Notes: generated by a model not told the origin, from the letters alone. DNA of 64,000 nucleotides from Candidatus Cloacimonadales bacterium (GCA_963674825.1 OY771587.1:1152001-1216000); one strand, 5' to 3'. Positions 54,912 to 64,000 are shown, counted from the first letter of the stretch. A program made the numbers and translations.

Positions 54912-56096
54912 TCAGTTGATCTTTGCGAGTGCGTTATCGAGATCGGAGATAATGTCCTCGATATCCTCGATACCGACGGAGAGGCGTACCAGCTCATCGG
55001 AGATACCGGCTTTGATACGGCCTTCGGGAGACACGCGGGAGTGGGTCATGGAAGCCGGATGCTGGATCAGTGTTTCGACACCGCCAAGTGACACGGCGAG
55101 CGTAGCCAGATGGACGTTGTCCATGAGTGTCTTTCCTGCGTCGAGTCCACCCTTGAGTCCAAAGGATATCATCGCGCCGAAACCCTTCATCTGCTTCTTC
55201 GCCAATTCGTGCTGCGGATGTGACTCGAGTCCCGGGTAGCGAATCCAAGCCACTTTCGGGTGATCCTCGAGGTAACGGGCGACTTTCATGGCGTTTTCCT
55301 GACCGCGTTCGACGCGGATGGAGAGGGTCTTCAGACCGCGATAGGCGAGGTATGCCTGATGCGGATCGATGTTCGGGCCCATGGTCGCCATCGTAGAATA
55401 AAGCGAGCGATAATCTTCTTCCGTCTTCGCGATAATGATTCCTCCCACGATATCGGCATGGCCGTTGATGAACTTGGTCATGGAGTGGAGAACAACGTCT
55501 GCCCCGAGTTCGAACGGACGCTGAAGGTACGGGCTGCAGAAGGTGTTATCGACGACAAGAGGGAAACCGTTGGCATGCGCGAGATTGGCACAGGCCTGAA
55601 TGTCGCTGATAACGATGGTCGGATTTGCGGGGGTTTCGATATAGAGCAACTTGGTGTTTGGCTTGATCGCGTTCTTGATCTCCTCGATATCCGAGGTATC
55701 CACAAAATCCGCTTCGACGCCAAAACGCTTGAAGTATTTCTCCAGTACACCGCGTGACGGACCGTAAACCGCCTCCGAGCATACGATGTGCGCGCCTTGG
55801 GAGAGGTAGTTCATATAAACGGTGGTGACTGCACCCATGCCTGAGGCTGTCGCGATTCCGCCGAAGCCGCCTTCGAGCTGTGCTACCGCATCTTCGAGCG
55901 CTTTAGTGGTAGGATTGCCGAGGCGTGTGTAGATAAAGCCATCGTCCTCACCGGCAAAACAAGCCGCACCATGATCGGCGTTCTTGAATGCAAACGTCGA
56001 TGTCTGATAGATGGGGATGGAAACGCTGAGATATTGATCGGGAAAGTGTCCCGCGTGAATTTGCTTCGTATTGAAACCCAGTTTTCTGGTGTCCAT
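54912..56096 (-). CDS. megL: Methionine gamma-lyase (Cys/Met PLP-dependent family)
   Basis: PIYQTSTF, YTRLGNPT, SGMGA, ETPANP, DNTF, HSMTKFINGH, AVSLGGVETLIQHPASMTH. Confidence 0.8.
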   Translation of the reverse strand: MDTRKLGFNTKQIHAGHFPDQYLSVSIPIYQTSTFAFKNADHGAACFAGEDDGFIYTRLGNPTTKALEDAVAQLEGGFGGIATASGMGAVTTVYMNYLSQGAHIVCSEAVYGPSRGVLEKYFKRFGVEADFVDTSDIEEIKNAIKPNTKLLYIETPANPTIVISDIQACANLAHANGFPLVVDNTFCSPYLQRPFELGADVVLHSMTKFINGHADIVGGIIIAKTEEDYRSLYSTMATMGPNIDPHQAYLAYRGLKTLSIRVERGQENAMKVARYLEDHPKVAWIRYPGLESHPQHELAKKQMKGFGAMISFGLKGGLDAGKTLMDNVHLATLAVSLGGVETLIQHPASMTHSRVSPEGRIKAGISDELVRLSVGIEDIEDIISDLDNALAKIN

Positions 56097-56375
56097 AGAT
56101 TCTCCTTCTTAATGATTGTAGCCAGAAAATTCGTACCGACGATTCTGTCTAATGAAATTAATATATACCTCGAACTGCCGGTAAGCATTCATTATTTTAC
56201 CGCAACAAACGATACGAGATTCCACAAAGCGCTTAAGACTGGGCATTCGGCCACTTTCGTATGTTCGTACAGAACCACGCCGAAAAAAGTTGACGACAAA
56301 ATCATCTACAGGTAATTGATAAATGAATTTCATATTTGAATATTCACGAGATAGATATTTTATGGAGGACCCAAG

Positions 56376-56957
56376 ATGAAGATTATACCTCGTTGGGAAT
56401 GGAGAACATTCGGCAATGACCTTCAAGGATACATGAAGGAATTCGAGCAATTCGAAAGCGCTGGCGTCAAGGCAAGCGAAGAGACCTATATCCTCTCACG
56501 GAAGAGTGACGACAACATCAAAATCCGCTTCGAGAAAGTCGATATGAAGACCATGCTCCGGCGCAGCCCGGACGGTATCGAACAATGGACGGTGCTTGGA
56601 AAGAACGGTTTCCCGGTAGACATCAACCAACTCGCGCTTATCTTCAAAGCATTCGGCTTCCCGATTCCCTGGCTCGATAAAGACGAATACGAATACAACG
56701 AATTCATGAGCGGAATCGTCGGGAACCTGCCCGACCTGACCACGGTGGAAGTCACCAAAACACGCAATATTTTCATTATCGACAAGGTGATCTGCGAATT
56801 CGCGGAAGTTACGTTTAACCAGCAGCCCATCCAGACGATCGCCTTCGAACACGAGGACATCGAGCTGGTTCGCAAGCTGGCCGAACGCTTCAAGAAACCC
56901 GGGATGCAGAACATCAACTACATCCAGGCAATGAAAAAAGCGGCAGGAATGATCTGA
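56376..56957 (+). CDS. CYTH/triphosphate-tunnel-like protein
   Basis: GGAGG RBS; N-terminal RWEWR (ExExK-like), E.Y, KIR…D.K, K.R, E, E, C-terminal NY. Confidence 0.6.
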   Translation: MKIIPRWEWRTFGNDLQGYMKEFEQFESAGVKASEETYILSRKSDDNIKIRFEKVDMKTMLRRSPDGIEQWTVLGKNGFPVDINQLALIFKAFGFPIPWLDKDEYEYNEFMSGIVGNLPDLTTVEVTKTRNIFIIDKVICEFAEVTFNQQPIQTIAFEHEDIELVRKLAERFKKPGMQNINYIQAMKKAAGMI

Positions 56958-56980
56958 TCGCACATGATAGGGGGAGAGTC

Positions 56981-57895
56981 ATGAAACGCATCGCAATACT
57001 GGACATCGGAACTAATTCCATCAAATTCCACGCAGCCGAAAAGACAGACCAGGGCGTCAACGTCCTGCACGATACCAACAACATCTCACGCCTCGGAGAC
57101 GGCATGACCCGCACCGGTATGCTCTCCGACGAAGCCATGGATCGCAACATCGAAGCGCTGCGCGAGTTCATGCAGCTCGCCAAAGACAAATACGATATCG
57201 ATAACTTCACCGCCGTAGGCACCATGTGCCTGCGTACCGCGAAAAACGCTCGAGATTTCACCGAACGCGCACGCAACGAACTCGGGCTGATTATCAATGT
57301 CTTGCCGGGCGAAGAAGAAGCGCGGCTTTCATATCTGGCGGTTGTATCGGGCGTTGGCGTCGGCAATGAAGATGTTCTCATCATCGATACCGGCGGCGGC
57401 AGCACCGAATTCATCTTTGGTCACGGCGACGACATCAAGAAGCGATTCAGCCTTGATATCGGCGCGGTGCTGATCACCGAAAACATCCTGATATCCGACC
57501 CGGTCGCAGCCGACGAGCTGCTACGCGCCAGAACCTACATCGAGAGCTTTTTCGACAAGAACGAGGTTAAGGGAAACATCACCCGTCTGGTGGGCATCGG
57601 AGGAACAGTGACAAGCCTTTGCGCAGTGATGCACAAGATGGAGAAGTTCAATCCTGACATCGTGCAGGGGAGCGTCATCAGCCTGAAAGAGGTGCAACAG
57701 CAGATCGAGAGCTACACCTCTAAGACGATCGAACAACGCAAGACCATCACTGGGCTGCAACCCAAGCGCGCGGATGTGATCCTCGCTGGCGCATTGATCC
57801 TCGAAGCTATCATGAAACGATTCAACGTTGAAGGCCTGGTGGTGAGCGATCGGGGCCTGCGCCACGGACTGACCTACGAAAAACTTGGAGGATAG
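56981..57895 (+). CDS. Ppx/GppA family phosphatase (short, two-domain form)
   Basis: DIGTNSIK, RLGDG, T..LR.AKN, GEEEARLSY, DTGGGSTE, GIGGT, RADVILAG, GLRHG. Confidence 0.93.
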   Translation: MKRIAILDIGTNSIKFHAAEKTDQGVNVLHDTNNISRLGDGMTRTGMLSDEAMDRNIEALREFMQLAKDKYDIDNFTAVGTMCLRTAKNARDFTERARNELGLIINVLPGEEEARLSYLAVVSGVGVGNEDVLIIDTGGGSTEFIFGHGDDIKKRFSLDIGAVLITENILISDPVAADELLRARTYIESFFDKNEVKGNITRLVGIGGTVTSLCAVMHKMEKFNPDIVQGSVISLKEVQQQIESYTSKTIEQRKTITGLQPKRADVILAGALILEAIMKRFNVEGLVVSDRGLRHGLTYEKLGG

Positions 57896-57905
57896 GGCAA
57901 CACAA

Positions 57906-59438
57906 ATGGTAAAAGCGACCAGAATTCTCACCGTCGTCATCCTCGTCGCCATCATGTTTTCCTGCGCCAAATCGAGCGACAACGCCTTTCCGAACAAACC
58001 GATCAAGATCGTCGTCTATACAGCCCCTGGCGGATTGATCGACATTACGGCACGAAAGTTCACTGATGTTGCCGCCAAATACACAGACGCCACCTTTGTG
58101 GTGGAAAATCGCCCCGGTGCCGGCGGCGTTGTGGGTATGCAGAGCGTTCTGCAAGCGCCTGCCGACGGCTACACCATTTTCGCGGGAACCAAATCCAATA
58201 TATCGTTCCTTGTCGGCGCAGACGCAGCCGTGAATTCAGATGATCTCAACTGGTTTGCCATGCTCATGGCCGATCCCGAATGCGTGATTACCAACAACAA
58301 GGCCGATATCAATACCTGGGAAGATATCGTCGAGGACGCCAAATCGCGTCCCGGCGAACAGATATGGCTCGGTCCCGATACCGGTGGACTCGATCACATC
58401 ATGGCGATGAAGCTCTGGGAACGCAGCGGCATTCAGTGCAAATGGATCCCCTTCAAGAGCGGCGGCGCCGCCAAGACAGCATTGCTGGGCGGACAGGGAG
58501 TTTGCTACGTGGGCAATCCCCGCGATATCGGTGGCAATCCAGACCTGAAAATCGCAGCGATCTCCGCAGAGAAACGGCTTCCACAATTCCCGGACGCTCC
58601 CACCTTCACCGAACTTGGTCTTCCCCGGCTCGAGCACGAGATTATGTGGCGCGGATTCGCTGTAAAAAAAGAAACACCCAAGAAAGCGCTGGCGTGGTTC
58701 TCGGATCTGATTGATGACGTAACGCAAGATCCGGACTGGCGCGGATTCTGGGAAAAGGGTGGTATCGAAGTCGTCCATTATGGCCCAGAGCGATTCCAGA
58801 AAATCGTGGAGCTCGACCGCATGGAATTCCACCACTATCTTTCCAGCCTTGGGCTGATCGAACCAGAACAGCGCCCCATGGACGGTCCCGGACAGCGTGG
58901 GCTCAACATGGAACTAATGACGTTCGGCATCCTCATGGTGCAGATCCTGCTGTTCTTCATCGCGGGAATCCGGCTTAAAAAAAGGGTGTTTAACTACACC
59001 GGCAGGATCCTCTTCCCCATCTTTTTCATCAGCCTGTCGCTGTTCTTCTTGATGCTCTCAACGCGCTTTTCAAGTGGCGAAAGCTACGGCCCGGCGGTGG
59101 TTCCGAGGTTATGGTCCATCTTCCTCGCTCTCTTCAGTGTAATCCTCTATATCAAGGTGCTCGCAGGCAAGGAAGAGCCCGACCCCAAGCCCGGAAGAAT
59201 GGACATCGTTTTCCGATTCATCGTGCTCCTGGCGCTCTATATTCCTGCGATTAACTACATCGGCTATATGATCTCAACAATCATCTTCCTTCCGCTGGCA
59301 ATGCTACTTCTTGGATACCGTAAAACCATCGCGATCGTTCTGATCACCATACTCTGGGCAGTGGTGTCGTACCTCCTCTTCTTCAAGCTGTTGCACGTCG
59401 CGCTGCCCGTAGGCATCCTCTGGACTTCGCTCGGGTAG
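57906..59438 (+). CDS. Tripartite tricarboxylate transporter TctC (lipoprotein) fused to TctB
   Basis: Lipobox FSC; FPNKPIKIVV..APGG..D..AR, NRPGAGG, DGYT, PTF.ELG, WRG; then about 5 TMs with TctB-like GPAVVP…IGY.IST…F..LL.V.LP.G. Confidence 0.88.
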   Translation: MVKATRILTVVILVAIMFSCAKSSDNAFPNKPIKIVVYTAPGGLIDITARKFTDVAAKYTDATFVVENRPGAGGVVGMQSVLQAPADGYTIFAGTKSNISFLVGADAAVNSDDLNWFAMLMADPECVITNNKADINTWEDIVEDAKSRPGEQIWLGPDTGGLDHIMAMKLWERSGIQCKWIPFKSGGAAKTALLGGQGVCYVGNPRDIGGNPDLKIAAISAEKRLPQFPDAPTFTELGLPRLEHEIMWRGFAVKKETPKKALAWFSDLIDDVTQDPDWRGFWEKGGIEVVHYGPERFQKIVELDRMEFHHYLSSLGLIEPEQRPMDGPGQRGLNMELMTFGILMVQILLFFIAGIRLKKRVFNYTGRILFPIFFISLSLFFLMLSTRFSSGESYGPAVVPRLWSIFLALFSVILYIKVLAGKEEPDPKPGRMDIVFRFIVLLALYIPAINYIGYMISTIIFLPLAMLLLGYRKTIAIVLITILWAVVSYLLFFKLLHVALPVGILWTSLG

Positions 59439-59444
59439 GTCACG

Positions 59445-60941
59445 ATGGAAATACTGACACATCTGCTTGAAGGATTTGGCTATATAGGCGGTTGGGCTCC
59501 TATGATCGCAATTGTTACAGGCGTAATCTTCGGTATCCTTGCCGGCGCTATGCCTGGGCTCTCTCCATCGATGGGTGTCGCGCTCTTGGTGCCTTTCACC
59601 TACGCACTCGATCCGTCATTGGCCCTTATCCTTCTCATCTCCATCTACATTGCAGCAAATTACGGCGGATCGATCACCGCGGTCACCATCAACGCACCCG
59701 GTACCGCCTCCGCGGTCGTCACCGCGTTCGATGGCTATCCGCTGACGAAAAAAGGCAAACCCGGCGTGGGACTCGGCATCTCGCTGATTTCATCAACAGT
59801 TGGCGGCATCGTCGGCACATTGATCCTGATATTCTTCTCCGTCCCGCTGGCGAAAGTCACCTTGAAGTTTCATCCCGCTGAATACTTCGCGCTGGCCTTT
59901 TTCGGACTTACCACCGTCGCGTCCCTGGGCGGAAAAAACTGGCTCAAAGCCTTCACAGCCGTATTTCTCGGGTTACTTCTTCGCACCATCGGAACTGAGC
60001 AGACCGGCATCAACCGGTTTTCCTTCGGCATTACCGAACTTTTCGATGGTTTCAACCTCATCCCGATCCTGATCGGGCTCTTCGCGCTCAGCGAGGTGTT
60101 CCGGCAGTTCGAGGCACATGAATTCGAAGTGCAGAAGTTTGAAGGCGGCAAATCACACTGGCCTTCCATTCCCGAATACTGGCGCTTGAAATGGACCATT
60201 CTGCGTTCATCAGTGATCGGTACCATTATCGGCATTTTCCCCGGTGCAGGCGCGACCATCGCGTCATTCATCTCCTATGATATCTCCAAGCGCATGAGCA
60301 AGAATCCCGACGAATACGGCAACGGCTCACCGGAAGGCGTCGCGGCAGCCGAGGCATCGAACAGTAGTTCCGTAGGTGGAGCGTTGGTTCCGCTTCTTAC
60401 ACTTGGCATCCCGGGAAGTGCTTCGACGGCAGTGCTCATCGGCGCACTGATGATTCACGATCTCGATCCCGGACCGCGGCTCTTCGAGACAGCGCCGGAA
60501 GTCGTTTACGGACTTTTCGCAAGCCTCCTGGTCGCCAACTTCGTCCTGCTGGCGCTCGGGCTCCTGGGCAGCAAGCTGTGGATCAAGGTAACGCAAGTCC
60601 CACGTGAGGTACTATTCCCCCTCATCTTTGCTGTATCGATCATCGGGGCTTTCGCGGTAAACAACTCCCTTTTCGACGTAGCCTCCTGTGTGGGCTTCGG
60701 AATTCTGGGCTGGCTGATGAGACGCCACGGCTATCCGGTTGCGCCGGTGGTGCTCGGAATCGTGCTGGGACGCATCGCGGAAGAGAACTTCCGAAACGCC
60801 GTCAAAATGGGAGGTTATGAAATTTTCTTTACAAGACCAATCAGTTTAGCAATCTTGAGTGTTGCGGTGATTTCCGTGTTGGTGCCGATGACAAGAGGCT
60901 TCTTCAAGAAGAAATCCACCGCCAATGTTGATACGAGGTAA
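59445..60941 (+). CDS. tctA: Tripartite tricarboxylate transporter permease TctA
   Basis: GAMPGL, YGGSI…N.PG, DGYP, PGAGA, G…[18 protein letters not shown]. Confidence 0.93.
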
Positions 60942-60947
60942 GACATT

Positions 60948-61586
60948 ATGCTACTAAGAAGAACCAAACGCATTGAACGTATGATTGACGACTTTCTGGA
61001 CGTGGTAAGCGAAGGAGGTATTCTCTTCAGTAAAGCCATCCGCTTTTACGTCGAGGAAAACACCGAAGAATTCGATGCTCGCAGATTGAAAGTATCGGAA
61101 CTGGAGAGCACCGCTGACCAGCTTCGCCGTGATATCGAGATGGAGCTCTATGCCCATACGCTGATCCCGGAATCGCGCGGTGATGTGCTCGCAATCCTGG
61201 AAAACACTGACGACATTATCGACAATATCAAAGAAACTCTTCTGCAATTTTCGGTGGAACATCCGAAGATCCCACACGAATTTGCCAGCCAGTATATCGA
61301 ACTTGCAATAGCCAGTGGGGAAAGTGTTGATGCGCTCGTTACAGGTGTCCGCTGTTTCTTCCGGGATGTTAAAACCGTGAAGGATCATCTTCATAAAGTG
61401 TATCTGCACGAGAAAGAAGCGGACAAGATCGCCGAACGACTCAAACGGGCAATATTTAATTCGGATATCGAACTTGCCTGGAAGAACCATCTTCGATATT
61501 TCGCGCTGCATGTTGAACATGTATCCGATTACGCCGAAACGATGGCGGATCGGCTTTCAATTTATACCATCAAACGACAGGTGTAA
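60948..61586 (+). CDS. DUF47 (PhoU-like) PiT accessory protein
   Basis: Duplicated E..AD..RR/KR helices, P.SR.D…E..D.I.D; directly upstream of PiT. Confidence 0.88.
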   Translation: MLLRRTKRIERMIDDFLDVVSEGGILFSKAIRFYVEENTEEFDARRLKVSELESTADQLRRDIEMELYAHTLIPESRGDVLAILENTDDIIDNIKETLLQFSVEHPKIPHEFASQYIELAIASGESVDALVTGVRCFFRDVKTVKDHLHKVYLHEKEADKIAERLKRAIFNSDIELAWKNHLRYFALHVEHVSDYAETMADRLSIYTIKRQV

Positions 61587-61589
61587 GCC

Positions 61590-63056
61590 GTGATACTGCT
61601 TATATATCTCTCCAGCGGTCTATTCCTGGCGTGGTCGCTGGGCGCAAACAATGCGGCGAATGTATTCGGTCCGGCAGTATCGACCAAAATGGTCAAGTTC
61701 CGCACAGCGGCAATACTGACCTCAATCTTCGTAATACTCGGAGCAGTCTATGAAGGAGCCGGCGCGTCGCAAACACTGGGTAAACTCGGTTCGGTTAACG
61801 CATTGGGTGGCGCTTTTACCGTAGCGCTGGCCGCTGCGATAACCGTCGCAGGGATGACAAAAATGGGCTTGCCTGTTTCCACATCACAGGCGATCGTGGG
61901 CGGAATCATCGGCTGGAACTTCTTCAGCGGATCACTCACTGACTTCTCCGCGCTATCGAAGATCTTTGGAACTTGGGTTATTTGCCCCATCCTGGCAGCT
62001 ATCTTTTCCTACATCTTTTACAAGCTGTACCTCGTGTTTATTGTCCGTACAAGAATTCACCTATTGCGGCTTGATGCACTTACTCGATTCTTCTATCTGG
62101 CGGTAACGGCATTCGGAGCATACAGCCTTGGCGCAAACAATATCGCCAACGCGATGGGCGTATTTGTACCGGCCTCGCCTTTCCACGACATACAAGTTAT
62201 GTCAGGCTTTACTCTATCTGGGACACAGGTGCTTTTCTTGATCGGAAGTATCGCGATCGGAGTAGGGGTCATCACATATTCACACAACGTTATCCGCACG
62301 GTGGGAAATGATCTTTTCCGCCTCTCTTCGGTTGGTGGATTAATCGTCATACTCGCCGAAGCCTGGGTGCTTTTCATCTTCGGTTCACAGTCACTCCACG
62401 ATTGGATGCTGGCCCATAACCTTCCGGCGTTTCCGCTGGTTCCGGTATCCAGCTCGCAGGCGGTTGTCGGTGGTGTAATCGGTATTGCGATTGCCAAAGG
62501 CGGACGGAATATCCAGTTTCGGGTGTTGGGCAGAATATCCATGGGATGGGTTACAACGCCTATCATCGCCTGTCTTATCACATTCATTCTGCTTTTCTTC
62601 GTGCAGAACGTGTTCGACCAGAAAGTACACAACGAATCGAGCTACGATTTCAGCCGCAATGTTATTACGGAGCTAAGCGAGCATGACATCGATTTCGACA
62701 AGCTCGAACCACTTAAAGGAACCAGTTTCAAAAATGCACGAGAGCTTAATAACTTCCTTTCAGGCGTAGATCAGTACAGCATGGAAGAGAAGGGATTGAT
62801 CCTCGCTTATGGCGCAGTTGATCCCATAGAGGTGACAACTCAAGGTATACGGATAATCCAGAATGATTATCTGAGCAAACAACAGCTTTCAGCCATCGAA
62901 GAGCTCGACGGAACGACGTACAAACACCGGTGGCAATTCGTGCAAGCGCTGTCAGACGCATCGGACGCCTGGCGAACAGATACTGGAAACAAACAGAAAG
63001 ACGATGAGACGCAGGAGCGTCTGAATTATATCATCAATCATTTTCGTATTCAATAA
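61590..63056 (+). CDS. Inorganic phosphate transporter (PiT family) with C-terminal soluble extension
   Basis: GANNAAN and GANNIAN signatures, PVSTSQ and PVSSSQ. Confidence 0.93.
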   Translation: MILLIYLSSGLFLAWSLGANNAANVFGPAVSTKMVKFRTAAILTSIFVILGAVYEGAGASQTLGKLGSVNALGGAFTVALAAAITVAGMTKMGLPVSTSQAIVGGIIGWNFFSGSLTDFSALSKIFGTWVICPILAAIFSYIFYKLYLVFIVRTRIHLLRLDALTRFFYLAVTAFGAYSLGANNIANAMGVFVPASPFHDIQVMSGFTLSGTQVLFLIGSIAIGVGVITYSHNVIRTVGNDLFRLSSVGGLIVILAEAWVLFIFGSQSLHDWMLAHNLPAFPLVPVSSSQAVVGGVIGIAIAKGGRNIQFRVLGRISMGWVTTPIIACLITFILLFFVQNVFDQKVHNESSYDFSRNVITELSEHDIDFDKLEPLKGTSFKNARELNNFLSGVDQYSMEEKGLILAYGAVDPIEVTTQGIRIIQNDYLSKQQLSAIEELDGTTYKHRWQFVQALSDASDAWRTDTGNKQKDDETQERLNYIINHFRIQ

Positions 63057-63074
63057 AATGAATTGGGGGACTTC

Positions 63075-64000
63075 ATGAATGGAACCTTTGGGAAAATCGG
63101 AGTAGTGACGATTCTGCTGTCGCTCTGCTTCGGAATGCTTTATGCCGATAGAACCAGCGCTAACACCGAGTGGAAAGACGGCATCCTGCAATTCTCATCA
63201 AGCGACGGTATGTTCAAGACACGCTTCGATGTCCGGATGTATCTGGACGGAGCAGTTTATTTCGAGAACAAGAATGAAGAATCAATGAGTGACGGTACCG
63301 ATCTTCGTCGTGTTCGCTTCGCGATGAAAGTAAAGCTCTGGGAAAAATGGCGCGCAGAATGGGATATGGATTTTGCCACCTATACTAAGAAAAGCGACAA
63401 GAAAAACACGGGACCGGAAGTCAAGGATATGTGGCTTGCCTACACGCCCTGGGACAACGCAATGCTCAAAGTTGGCCATTTCAAGCCGCCATTCAGCATG
63501 GAAGAACTAACCAGTTCTGCAAAAACCGTATTCCTCGAACGCGCTTACCCGAATGTATTCACCACCGGTCGCCGTATCGGTGTTGGTATGAGCTTCTGGA
63601 AACCATGGATGCATGTTTCGGCAGGTATGTTCGGCGAAGCAGCCGAAAACCTCGACCAGAAATCGGGTGACGAAGGCTCGGCAATCGCGGCACGTATCGT
63701 TGTCGCGCCCATCAATAACGAAAAATCCCTCGTGCATATCGGCGGTGCCGTCCAGTGGATCACTCCCGATGCAGTGGAAGACGGGCAGCAGCGCGTAATC
63801 GGATTCGACGAACGTCCCGAAACCAGCGTTGCCCGTACAAAATTCCTGGATACAGGTGATATCACAGACGTATCCGGCTATAACACTTTGGGCGGCGAGC
63901 TGGCTGGTAAATTCGGCCCGTTCTACGCTGAAGCCGAATACATGCTGACCACTGTATTGCGCAGAGCAGATAAGGAAGACGCAGAATTCGCAGGCGGTTA
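63075..64000 (+). CDS. Phosphate-selective porin OprO/OprP family, 3' end cut by window edge
   Basis: Own translation: signal peptide MNGTFGKIGVVTILLSLCFGMLYA; DLRRVRF, EWDMDFA, VKDMWLAY, KVGHFKPPFSMEELTSS…FLER, RRIG, ERPE; no stop before the end, so absent from the ORF track. Confidence 0.88.
   Translation, partial: MNGTFGKIGVVTILLSLCFGMLYADRTSANTEWKDGILQFSSSDGMFKTRFDVRMYLDGAVYFENKNEESMSDGTDLRRVRFAMKVKLWEKWRAEWDMDFATYTKKSDKKNTGPEVKDMWLAYTPWDNAMLKVGHFKPPFSMEELTSSAKTVFLERAYPNVFTTGRRIGVGMSFWKPWMHVSAGMFGEAAENLDQKSGDEGSAIAARIVVAPINNEKSLVHIGGAVQWITPDAVEDGQQRVIGFDERPETSVARTKFLDTGDITDVSGYNTLGGELAGKFGPFYAEAEYMLTTVLRRADKEDAEFAGG

Follow-up and report, generated by a model that had tools for sequence, protein, structure and literature searches.

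On the usual view, bacteria split external condensed phosphates before these reach the cytoplasm, and what they import is orthophosphate (Pi). In Pseudomonas, the porins OprO and OprP reportedly serve this route together with a periplasmic phosphatase and PstSCAB, external condensed phosphate being hydrolysed in the periplasm before Pi is taken up. Here we compare such systems with a locus in a 64,000-nt stretch of DNA from a Candidatus Cloacimonadales bacterium (GCA_963674825.1 OY771587.1:1152001-1216000; the window). At its end, seven co-oriented open reading frames (ORFs) at 56376..64000 (+) encode a triphosphate tunnel metalloenzyme (TTM), a Ppx/GppA protein, a tripartite tricarboxylate transporter (TTT) as a TctC-TctB fusion and TctA, a DUF47 protein, a PiT-family transporter and an OprO/OprP-type porin. 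We put at roughly two in three the probability that this operon imports triphosphate-sized inorganic polyphosphate (polyP) intact and breaks it down in the cytoplasm to pyrophosphate (PPi) and Pi.

Several parts of the locus have described counterparts, and depart from them. The tripolyphosphatases NeuTTM (NE1496), YgiF, AtTTM3 and SaTTM share with the first gene the TTM barrel, the Tyr/Lys dyad, RxR-type basic residues and a DxY-type motif, whereas this TTM, which we call RWEWR-type, has RxExR for ExExK and, by spacing, Ala, Cys or Ser for the first Glu of ExE, is 9–16% identical to them and has no PF01928 match. The citrate or citrate-metal carriers TctCBA of Salmonella and BctCBA of Bordetella and the sulfolactate transporter SlcHFG resemble the operon TTT in their three components, the pincer Gly-Gly/Asp, the WRG arginine and the acidic water-shell positions. 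Unlike them, the operon TTT belongs to a separate clade with an invariant Asn72 in TctA, phosphoanhydrases as partners and no citrate lyase neighbours; in diderm members of the clade TctC is fused to TctB, while the excerpted text of PMC5812351 mentions a TctA-TctB fusion only. Clustering of Ppx with polyP-handling genes is known from ppk-ppx operons and from the Sulfolobus ppx-PPK3-CHAD-SixA operon (PMC12995831), but the present module has no kinase among its recurrent neighbours and has a binding-protein importer and a porin. The PPX/GPPA of Aquifex aeolicus (2j4r, 1t6c) is likewise a short single-domain Ppx with conserved catalytic positions, and the module Ppx differs in being paired or fused with the RWEWR-type TTM. 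The porin is of the same family as OprO/OprP, but the hydrolases here are predicted to be cytoplasmic, and pstSCAB-phoU and phoBR lie elsewhere. In literature titles and the starts of abstracts, where subscription journals are largely uncovered, we have found no description of the module, of a polyphosphate-binding TTT or of a trimetaphosphatase gene. The module would be an undescribed variant of binding-protein uptake and catabolism with an unnamed enzyme family.

The elements of the operon are as follows, with positions counted from the first letter of the window.

56290..56345 (+), putative promoter region with TTGACG at 56290; the ArsR operator known from relatives is absent
56376..56957 (+), RWEWR-type TTM of 193 aa, recognised by a fold match and predicted to be cytoplasmic; hub of the module
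56981..57895 (+), short single-domain Ppx/GppA of the Aquifex type (Pfam 7e-63), predicted to be cytoplasmic
57906..59438 (+), TctC-TctB fusion, one ORF of 510 aa (Pfam TctC 1.6e-26 and TctB 1.7e-15)
59445..60941 (+), TctA transporter subunit with the clade-specific Asn72 (Pfam 4e-156)
60948..61586 (+), DUF47 (PhoU-like) accessory protein (Pfam 8e-24; TIGR00153 below its cut-off)
61590..63056 (+), PiT-family transporter, putative Pi mover (PHO4 1.5e-53)
63075..64000 (+), 5' part of an OprO/OprP-type porin gene (Porin_O_P 6e-35)

With ATG starts at 57906 and 63075, the gaps between the seven ORFs are 23, 10, 6, 6, 3 and 18 nt in order. These positions and gaps confirm the seven co-oriented genes, 3–23 nt apart, reported in the original prediction. 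Six of the seven have clear Pfam matches, the first gene being the one without, and the porin gene ends 331 nt past the window. The GC content is 0.52 in the operon and 0.50 in the host genome (G000; 3.89 Mb, 99.6% complete), which has its closest named relatives in the Cloacimonadales.

The gene order recurs in at least six phyla, and therefore the linkage exceeds chance; TTM-Ppx-TTT was seen in spirochaetes, among others. Our forward survey started from the 80 best of at least 572 GTDB matches, to which phylum samples and two plasmid records were added, and it comprised 121 distinct loci. Left out were L002, exact duplicates, the short loci L085-L110 (duplicates, or replaced by longer versions) and L171, where a stop interrupts the TTM, which went uncalled. 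Families were labelled by BLASTP (E 1e-4) within 8 kb, with one reference for each family, except that two accessory families had as many as three. Across the 121 loci, on which all locus counts below are based unless stated, the carrier is a TTT of the clade in 72 and a DASS protein in 23, and in none are both present. The partner enzyme is a Ppx in 73 and a NeuTTM-type CYTH protein in 39, again never both, so that 112 have either. As to combinations, TTT goes with Ppx in 59 loci and with CYTH in 13, while DASS goes with CYTH in 23 and with Ppx in none. Where the downstream sequence extends for 4 kb or more (98 loci), a partner enzyme is present in 93, a carrier in 85 and neither in 5. Overall, the conserved unit consists of the TTM, one of two enzymes (Ppx or NeuTTM-type CYTH) and one of two carriers (TTT or DASS), with the TTM as its hub. 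The full PiT-porin block is lineage-limited, with TTT, PiT and porin together in 20 of the 72 TTT loci. The original prediction is in part supported, and is corrected here as to the conserved unit.

The link between TTM and TTT holds in both directions. In addition to the 72 forward loci, the reverse survey finds the clade TctC beside a TTM in 35 of 38 cases. Cloacimonadota have a clade TctC in 19 of 151 genomes, and all 19 have the TTM, within 8 kb in 16 and on another contig in 3. The proportion is 12/12 in Calditrichota and 7/7 in Synergistota, where non-clade TctC rows give 0/20. The DASS form is also found on a mobile element, a Citrobacter freundii plasmid with LysR-CYTH-RWEWR TTM-SLC13 (L083:7208-12727), a locus that has in addition a 491-aa unknown gene shared with L117. 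A cultured carrier of the DASS form is Sporomusa rhizae DSM 16652. In GC-rich loci, long ORFs that looked like unknown genes proved to be DASS and CYTH genes read in the wrong frame.

All three TTT Pfam families (TctC, TctB and TctA) score above their cut-offs in the operon. The TctC-TctB protein comprises a signal segment, a binding domain and six helices predicted from hydropathy; the fusion occurs in 34 loci, and the two parts are separate in 48 (duplicates kept, and two non-clade rows included in the 48). In a quick tree of 83 TctC sequences, built without bootstrap, the 61 TTM-linked ones, to which the TctC of the window belongs, form one branch (SH-aLRT 100) against 22 paralogues. For TctA, column counts show Asn72 in 53/53 clade members and 0/23 paralogues. 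A non-clade TTT lies between phoU and what we take to be an MgtE-like gene (L151:4431-9597), perhaps a second phosphate-linked TTT. Of the TTT pincer loop P-F-x-A-G-G-x-x-D (PMC5812351), G42 and D46 are present in 61/61 clade TctC, and the leading P-F reads Y/H-V/T/S. We have mapped the BctC and BctA sites by spacing from the residue numbers in 10.64898/2026.07.27.740893. BctC D171, Y212, D215, E218 and R263 become D163, Y201, N204, D207 and R249, which are well conserved in the clade; since the BctC-like shell is conserved, the ligand may be a metal chelate, metal-polyphosphate or metal-citrate alike. The carbon-docking F48 of BctC is I/M45 in 60/61 clade TctC, and the acidic-site residues E75 and E90 of BctA are Asn72 (53/53) and Thr87 (52/53; Thr87 is common in paralogues too). 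So mapped, the citrate-carrier signature formed by these three residues is not found in the clade.

The first gene has no meaningful match in Pfam or NCBIfam. Its structure model, made from 31 sequences (pLDDT 96), matches CYTH/TTM structures (Foldseek 1.5e-6), the best being E. coli YgiF (5a61; Z 13.3, rmsd 4.2, 168 aligned); the two structures ranking after YgiF are tied within 1 Z, and thiamine triphosphatase (ThTPase) is among the top fold matches. The family amounts to 2,144 clusters at 50% identity. Near-invariant in 180 of its sequences are R6, E8, R10, Y38, K49, R51, K58, K128, R130, E141 and E158. R6-x-E8-x-R10, each residue in 179, replaces the N-terminal ExExK, and Y38, K49, R51, K58, K128 and R130 are each present in at least 175. 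Position 36, in the DxY-type motif, is E in 167 and D in 10; position 156, the first Glu of ExE elsewhere, is A in 103, C in 36 and S in 18, while the second Glu, E158, is kept in 173. This register was fixed by spacing to NeuTTM-type proteins, with which hhalign gives a probability of 0.3% and a weak 19-column stretch that served only as the spacing anchor; by spacing, Tyr/Lys dyad, DxY-type motif and basic residues all have their counterparts in the first gene. According to PMC8233210, the defining features of the CYTH family are the ExExK and ExE motifs, and metal 1 is bound by the first Glu of ExE. The first gene shows the barrel fold, the basic tunnel residues and the DxY-type motif of the CYTH/TTM fold, and lacks a PF01928 match, ExExK and the first Glu of ExE. 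The label "CYTH-like" given to it originally is thus right for the fold and wrong for a canonical CYTH protein. We infer that the protein is a functional TTM whose metal-1 site has been rebuilt, and that it belongs to the fold but not to PF01928.

The HF motif of class IV adenylyl cyclases and the W/YxRxR motif of thiamine triphosphatases are absent from the RWEWR TTM, which has IIP ahead of R6 and N47-x-K49-x-R51. The nearest CYTH cluster in the Atlas, at 0.85, is a lead only. A PDB sequence search with the TTM profile gave nothing below E 0.17, and a scan of metagenomes with this one protein turned up a single match of 15 residues. A homologue search for longer forms returned none, which reflects its sensitivity limit, because a profile search later recovered many fusions: a Ppx-GppA domain stands behind the TTM domain in 14 of 29 scanned members longer than 245 aa, several of which look frameshifted. 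Neither the TTM nor the module Ppx has a hydrophobic segment or a signal segment. Besides, a second, more divergent RWEWR-TTM copy occurs in the same cluster at L030, L031, L034, L037, L046, L067 and L120-L122. A third TTM-fold family of ~300 aa has a signal-like N-terminal segment and could trim polyP outside the cytoplasm (examples are L046:7979-8977, L029:8291-9199, L078:8515-9456 and L121:326-1351); including a related unsecreted form, it is labelled in 9 loci.

The partner enzymes are of recognisable families. The module Ppx has Aquifex 2j4r as its best PDB match (E 1.3e-52) and keeps E113, D136, E143, R85 and R263 at 95% or more in 72 sequences, residues whose catalytic roles we assume to be those of the Aquifex enzyme; against the exopolyphosphatase equivalog TIGR03706 it scores 248 bits, under the curated cut-off of 307. 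Short Ppx enzymes reportedly prefer short chains and PPPi. The CYTH partner matches NE1496 (E 7e-19), with ExExK, the Tyr/Lys dyad and ExE all intact. NeuTTM (NE1496) and YgiF are named in PMC3440374 as the only known specific tripolyphosphatases (PPPases), and tripolyphosphate (PPPi) is described there as not found in cells outside acidocalcisomes. The chemistry common to the Ppx and NeuTTM families is short-chain polyP hydrolysis. As one slot is filled by either of them, the invariant TTM should do another step; the frequent position of the RWEWR TTM beside an intact NeuTTM-type enzyme also makes a different step probable.

Polyphosphate kinase was not found in the operon, which is unlike a storage operon, nor were PPK1 and PPK2 found in G000, where PPK3 was not searched. 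Across the phylum, PPK1 occurs in 1 of 151 genomes, and that one is without the module. As the exopolyphosphatase is predicted to be cytoplasmic and no such kinase was found, its substrate probably comes from outside; pppGpp is still a possible Ppx substrate, and a second Ppx is encoded elsewhere in G000. PPK3 was rejected as a model for the enzymes here, being a P-loop kinase. The only pyrophosphatase (PPase) found in G000 is an ion-pumping membrane PPase; neither a soluble PPase of family I or II nor a canonical CYTH was found in this genome, and its pstSCAB-phoU and phoBR-like genes are at other locations. A cluster with a CitD-E fusion and CitF lies at ~1.693-1.705 Mb of G000 (contig C1; L146:3465-14686), ~490 kb from the operon, whose TTT is the only one in the genome. 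The cit genes share one run with Iso_dh, an HD protein, two aconitases and two genes of the saccharopine-dehydrogenase type. The arrangement resembles an alpha-aminoadipate lysine pathway that employs a complex of the citrate-lyase type, and none of the ORFs scanned in it is an anion carrier.

Based on the above analyses, a route can be proposed that builds on the observed gene content, folds, linkage, exchangeable slots and transporter clade. The substrate would enter through the OprO/P-type porin, be captured by the tethered TctC and be symported by TctAB, or by a DASS carrier in other lineages. The RWEWR-TTM would then carry out a step beyond the housekeeping enzymes, most likely one yielding PPPi from the imported species, and Ppx, or the NeuTTM-type enzyme elsewhere, would cut PPPi into PPi and Pi, judging from family knowledge. 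PPi would pass to a pyrophosphatase (in G000, the membrane ion-pumping one), and PiT with DUF47, or NptA with PhoU, would balance the released Pi. The imported species would be linear PPPi/P4 or cyclic P3 (cP3), probably as a metal chelate; PstS is described as binding PPPi weakly (PMC10846223).

More tentatively, the cargo may be cyclic trimetaphosphate, a citrate-sized trianion, whose ring the RWEWR-TTM would open to PPPi for Ppx or NeuTTM. The RWEWR-TTM could then be a bacterial trimetaphosphatase (presumably EC 3.6.1.2), with both metal-1 glutamates lost and an arginine gained. Exopolyphosphatases should leave cP3 intact, as it offers them no chain end, and it should therefore need an importer of its own. 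It forms from polyP without an enzyme and persists at 70 C, with 58% of phosphate as cP3 (PMC12995831). In genomes with a membrane PPase only, PPi could build an ion-motive force, and PiT would export surplus Pi. A different division of labour, which we hold to be somewhat more doubtful, is that linear PPPi/P4 is cut first by Ppx or NeuTTM and that the RWEWR protein is a pyrophosphatase turning PPi into 2 Pi. Plant TTM1/2, without ExExK and ExE, use PPi (PMC8233210), and G000 lacks both soluble PPase families; yet among other module genomes tested, family I PPase is present in four of five and a DHHA2-type PPase in two of five, and at four loci a family I PPase lies in the cluster itself, where the RWEWR protein, encoded by the invariant gene, would be redundant. 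Other linear-chain routes take up what ring opening and this variant leave of the intact-import reading.

Outside intact import of inorganic polyP, the cargo might be an organic triphosphate (NTP, thiamine triphosphate or pppGpp) that is stripped of its phosphates. TTMs act on NTP, RNA ends and thiamine triphosphate, Ppx/GppA acts on pppGpp (PMC6973038), and thiamine triphosphatase ranks high among the fold matches. We consider this unlikely, given that the interchangeable partner is of the NeuTTM type, described as PPPi-specific, that the HF (cyclase) and WxRxR (thiamine triphosphatase) motifs are absent, and that no nucleoside or thiamine salvage family is among the recurrent neighbours scanned. 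The TTT could also be a citrate or metal-carboxylate carrier riding with a phosphate operon, for example to supply metal ions. The conserved BctC-like acidic shell and Arg, the carboxylates that DASS carriers take as well, and the presence in G000 of CitD-E and CitF with the operon TTT as the only TTT speak for it. However, a regular company of citrate-lyase genes, which the original prediction had named as evidence against itself, was seen at none of the 121 TTM loci, while the same query did match the non-clade TTT locus L156; the cit genes of G000 lie far from the operon amid saccharopine dehydrogenase, aconitase and Iso_dh genes; and CitF occurs in 47 of 151 phylum genomes, among them only 14 of the 19 with the clade TctC. 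On these three counts a citrate role was rejected, and with the replacement of BctA E75 and E90 by Asn72 and Thr87 and of BctC F48 by Ile/Met, we regard a carrier of this kind as very unlikely.

Slightly less probable still is a phosphorylated organic acid (phosphoglycerate, PEP or phosphoglycolate) with PgtCBA-like sensing. A PhnD-like binding protein, a histidine kinase and a sigma54 regulator stand by the PhnD-labelled loci checked (the label is given to 15 loci), a set that presumably resembles the Pgt sensor, and in one Sporomusa locus a phosphomutase-family gene and a second DASS gene follow; all the conserved enzymes, though, are phosphoanhydrases and not monoesterases, and the neighbours scanned include no recurrent carbon-catabolic family. 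The original view that this TTT serves phosphate-anhydride uptake and not citrate came through the refutation test that it had set itself; a phosphorylated organic anion is judged less likely than an inorganic anhydride. Least probable of all is that the cluster handles internal polyP or PPPi, in detoxification or storage turnover, with carriers that export products or serve otherwise. PPPi detoxification was proposed for PPPases in PMC3440374, and TTM and Ppx stand without a carrier at L081, L084 and L114. Against this, TTTs that depend on a binding protein work as importers, the module genomes of this phylum are without PPK1, and in one genome an apparent joint decay is seen, with ArsR-DUF47-PiT kept, TTM and Ppx missing at the locus and TctC reduced to a 38-residue remnant (L130:2420-4796).

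Several points weigh against intact import of inorganic polyP itself. The locus counts are patterns and not statistics, as 80 of the 121 loci were picked by query similarity and kin are not independent. Of the 98 loci with sufficient downstream sequence, 13 are without either carrier and 5 without either partner enzyme; phoU adjoins 1 of 20 non-clade TTT control loci, and one paralogue TctC has a TTM ~7 kb away, the two being in different operons. The clade TctC keeps the positions that match the citrate-Zn shell of BctC (D163, Y201, D207 and R249, matched by spacing) and has no invariant extra basic pocket residue, K96 being found in only 22 of 61. The TTT substrates named in the excerpted text of PMC5812351 are organic anions, plus nicotinamide as the Bug27 ligand. 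The PPX of E. coli hydrolyses PPPi poorly (PMC3440374), and Ppx/GppA acts on pppGpp too (PMC6973038).

As for regulation, nearly all of the 22 relatives compared carry a TTGAC element ahead of the first gene. A promoter consensus scan matches 56316-56344, with total promoter and terminator matches that did not exceed those in shuffles. Local regulators are ArsR (21 loci), the PhnD-like sensor (15) and LysR (9), with PrpR-type sigma54 activators in some Bacillota. Just past TTGAC, TCATAT-N12-ATATGA is present with 0-2 mismatches in 19/19 ArsR promoters, the motif having been read from the same sequences, and with 3-5 mismatches in three loci without ArsR, the window included; the ArsR-promoter copies (L006, L007, L009, L012 and 15 more) lie upstream of the ArsR gene. 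The repeat is likely the operator for ArsR. The local regulators and this repeat suggest substrate induction rather than Pho control. A Pho-box scan with an E. coli consensus gave 9/14 at best, the pstS promoter itself giving 8/14, which leaves the scan uninformative. "Scavenging", as the original prediction has it, is accordingly a tentative term.

Genes for Pi handling accompany the core in changing forms: PiT in 43 loci, DUF47 in 44, NptA in 21, PhoU in 12 and an MgtC-type protein in 11, with PiT and NptA together in one. The PiT protein scores 90 of 400 bits for CysP and 16 of 800 for PitA in NCBIfam, both far under the cut-offs; since PiT is exchanged elsewhere for NptA, often with PhoU, Pi is favoured as its cargo. 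An OprO/P-type porin is found in 41 loci, and further phosphate-related neighbours are the PhnD-like sensor, MgtC, the exported TTM-fold protein and, in four loci, family I PPase. MgtC or DUF4010-bearing MgtC-like genes replace PiT/NptA at L046, L048, L061, L067, L077, L082 and L119-L123. After the DASS gene of many DASS-type loci comes a ~250-aa protein without a Pfam match and with N- and C-terminal hydrophobic segments, possibly an accessory subunit (L064:3583-4377, L117:5518-6336 and L046:12541-13389).

Beyond the porin gene, three further co-oriented genes follow at gaps of 9, 0 and 40 nt. Their products are exported: a lamin-tail-domain protein, an SdiA-regulated/phytase-like propeller and a lamin-tail protein with a secretion tail. 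The propeller is a marginal Pfam match (29.9 bits against a cut-off of 27.6), and a PDB search with it was uninformative; phytate use, an idea it had raised, was discarded on this score and because the conserved enzymes are anhydrases. The operon end faces a convergent gene for a 1,199-aa protein that resembles a fusion of guanylate/adenylate cyclase, ATPase and TPR parts (L001:13044-16643 (-)). On the other side, a divergent PLP-enzyme gene at 54912-56096 (-), which we take to resemble methionine gamma-lyase, adjoins the operon only in the closest relative and is therefore placed outside the module.

If true, import of intact PPPi or cyclic P3 would extend the substrates of TTT and DASS carriers to an inorganic class, and would show where specific tripolyphosphatases encounter their substrate, a question raised in PMC3440374. 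An enzyme family of more than 2,000 clusters that has no name would also gain a function, and there would be a bearing on phosphorus recycling where polyP decays. Anaerobes are said to draw energy from added PPi or polyP, and this old claim would become testable with named genes.

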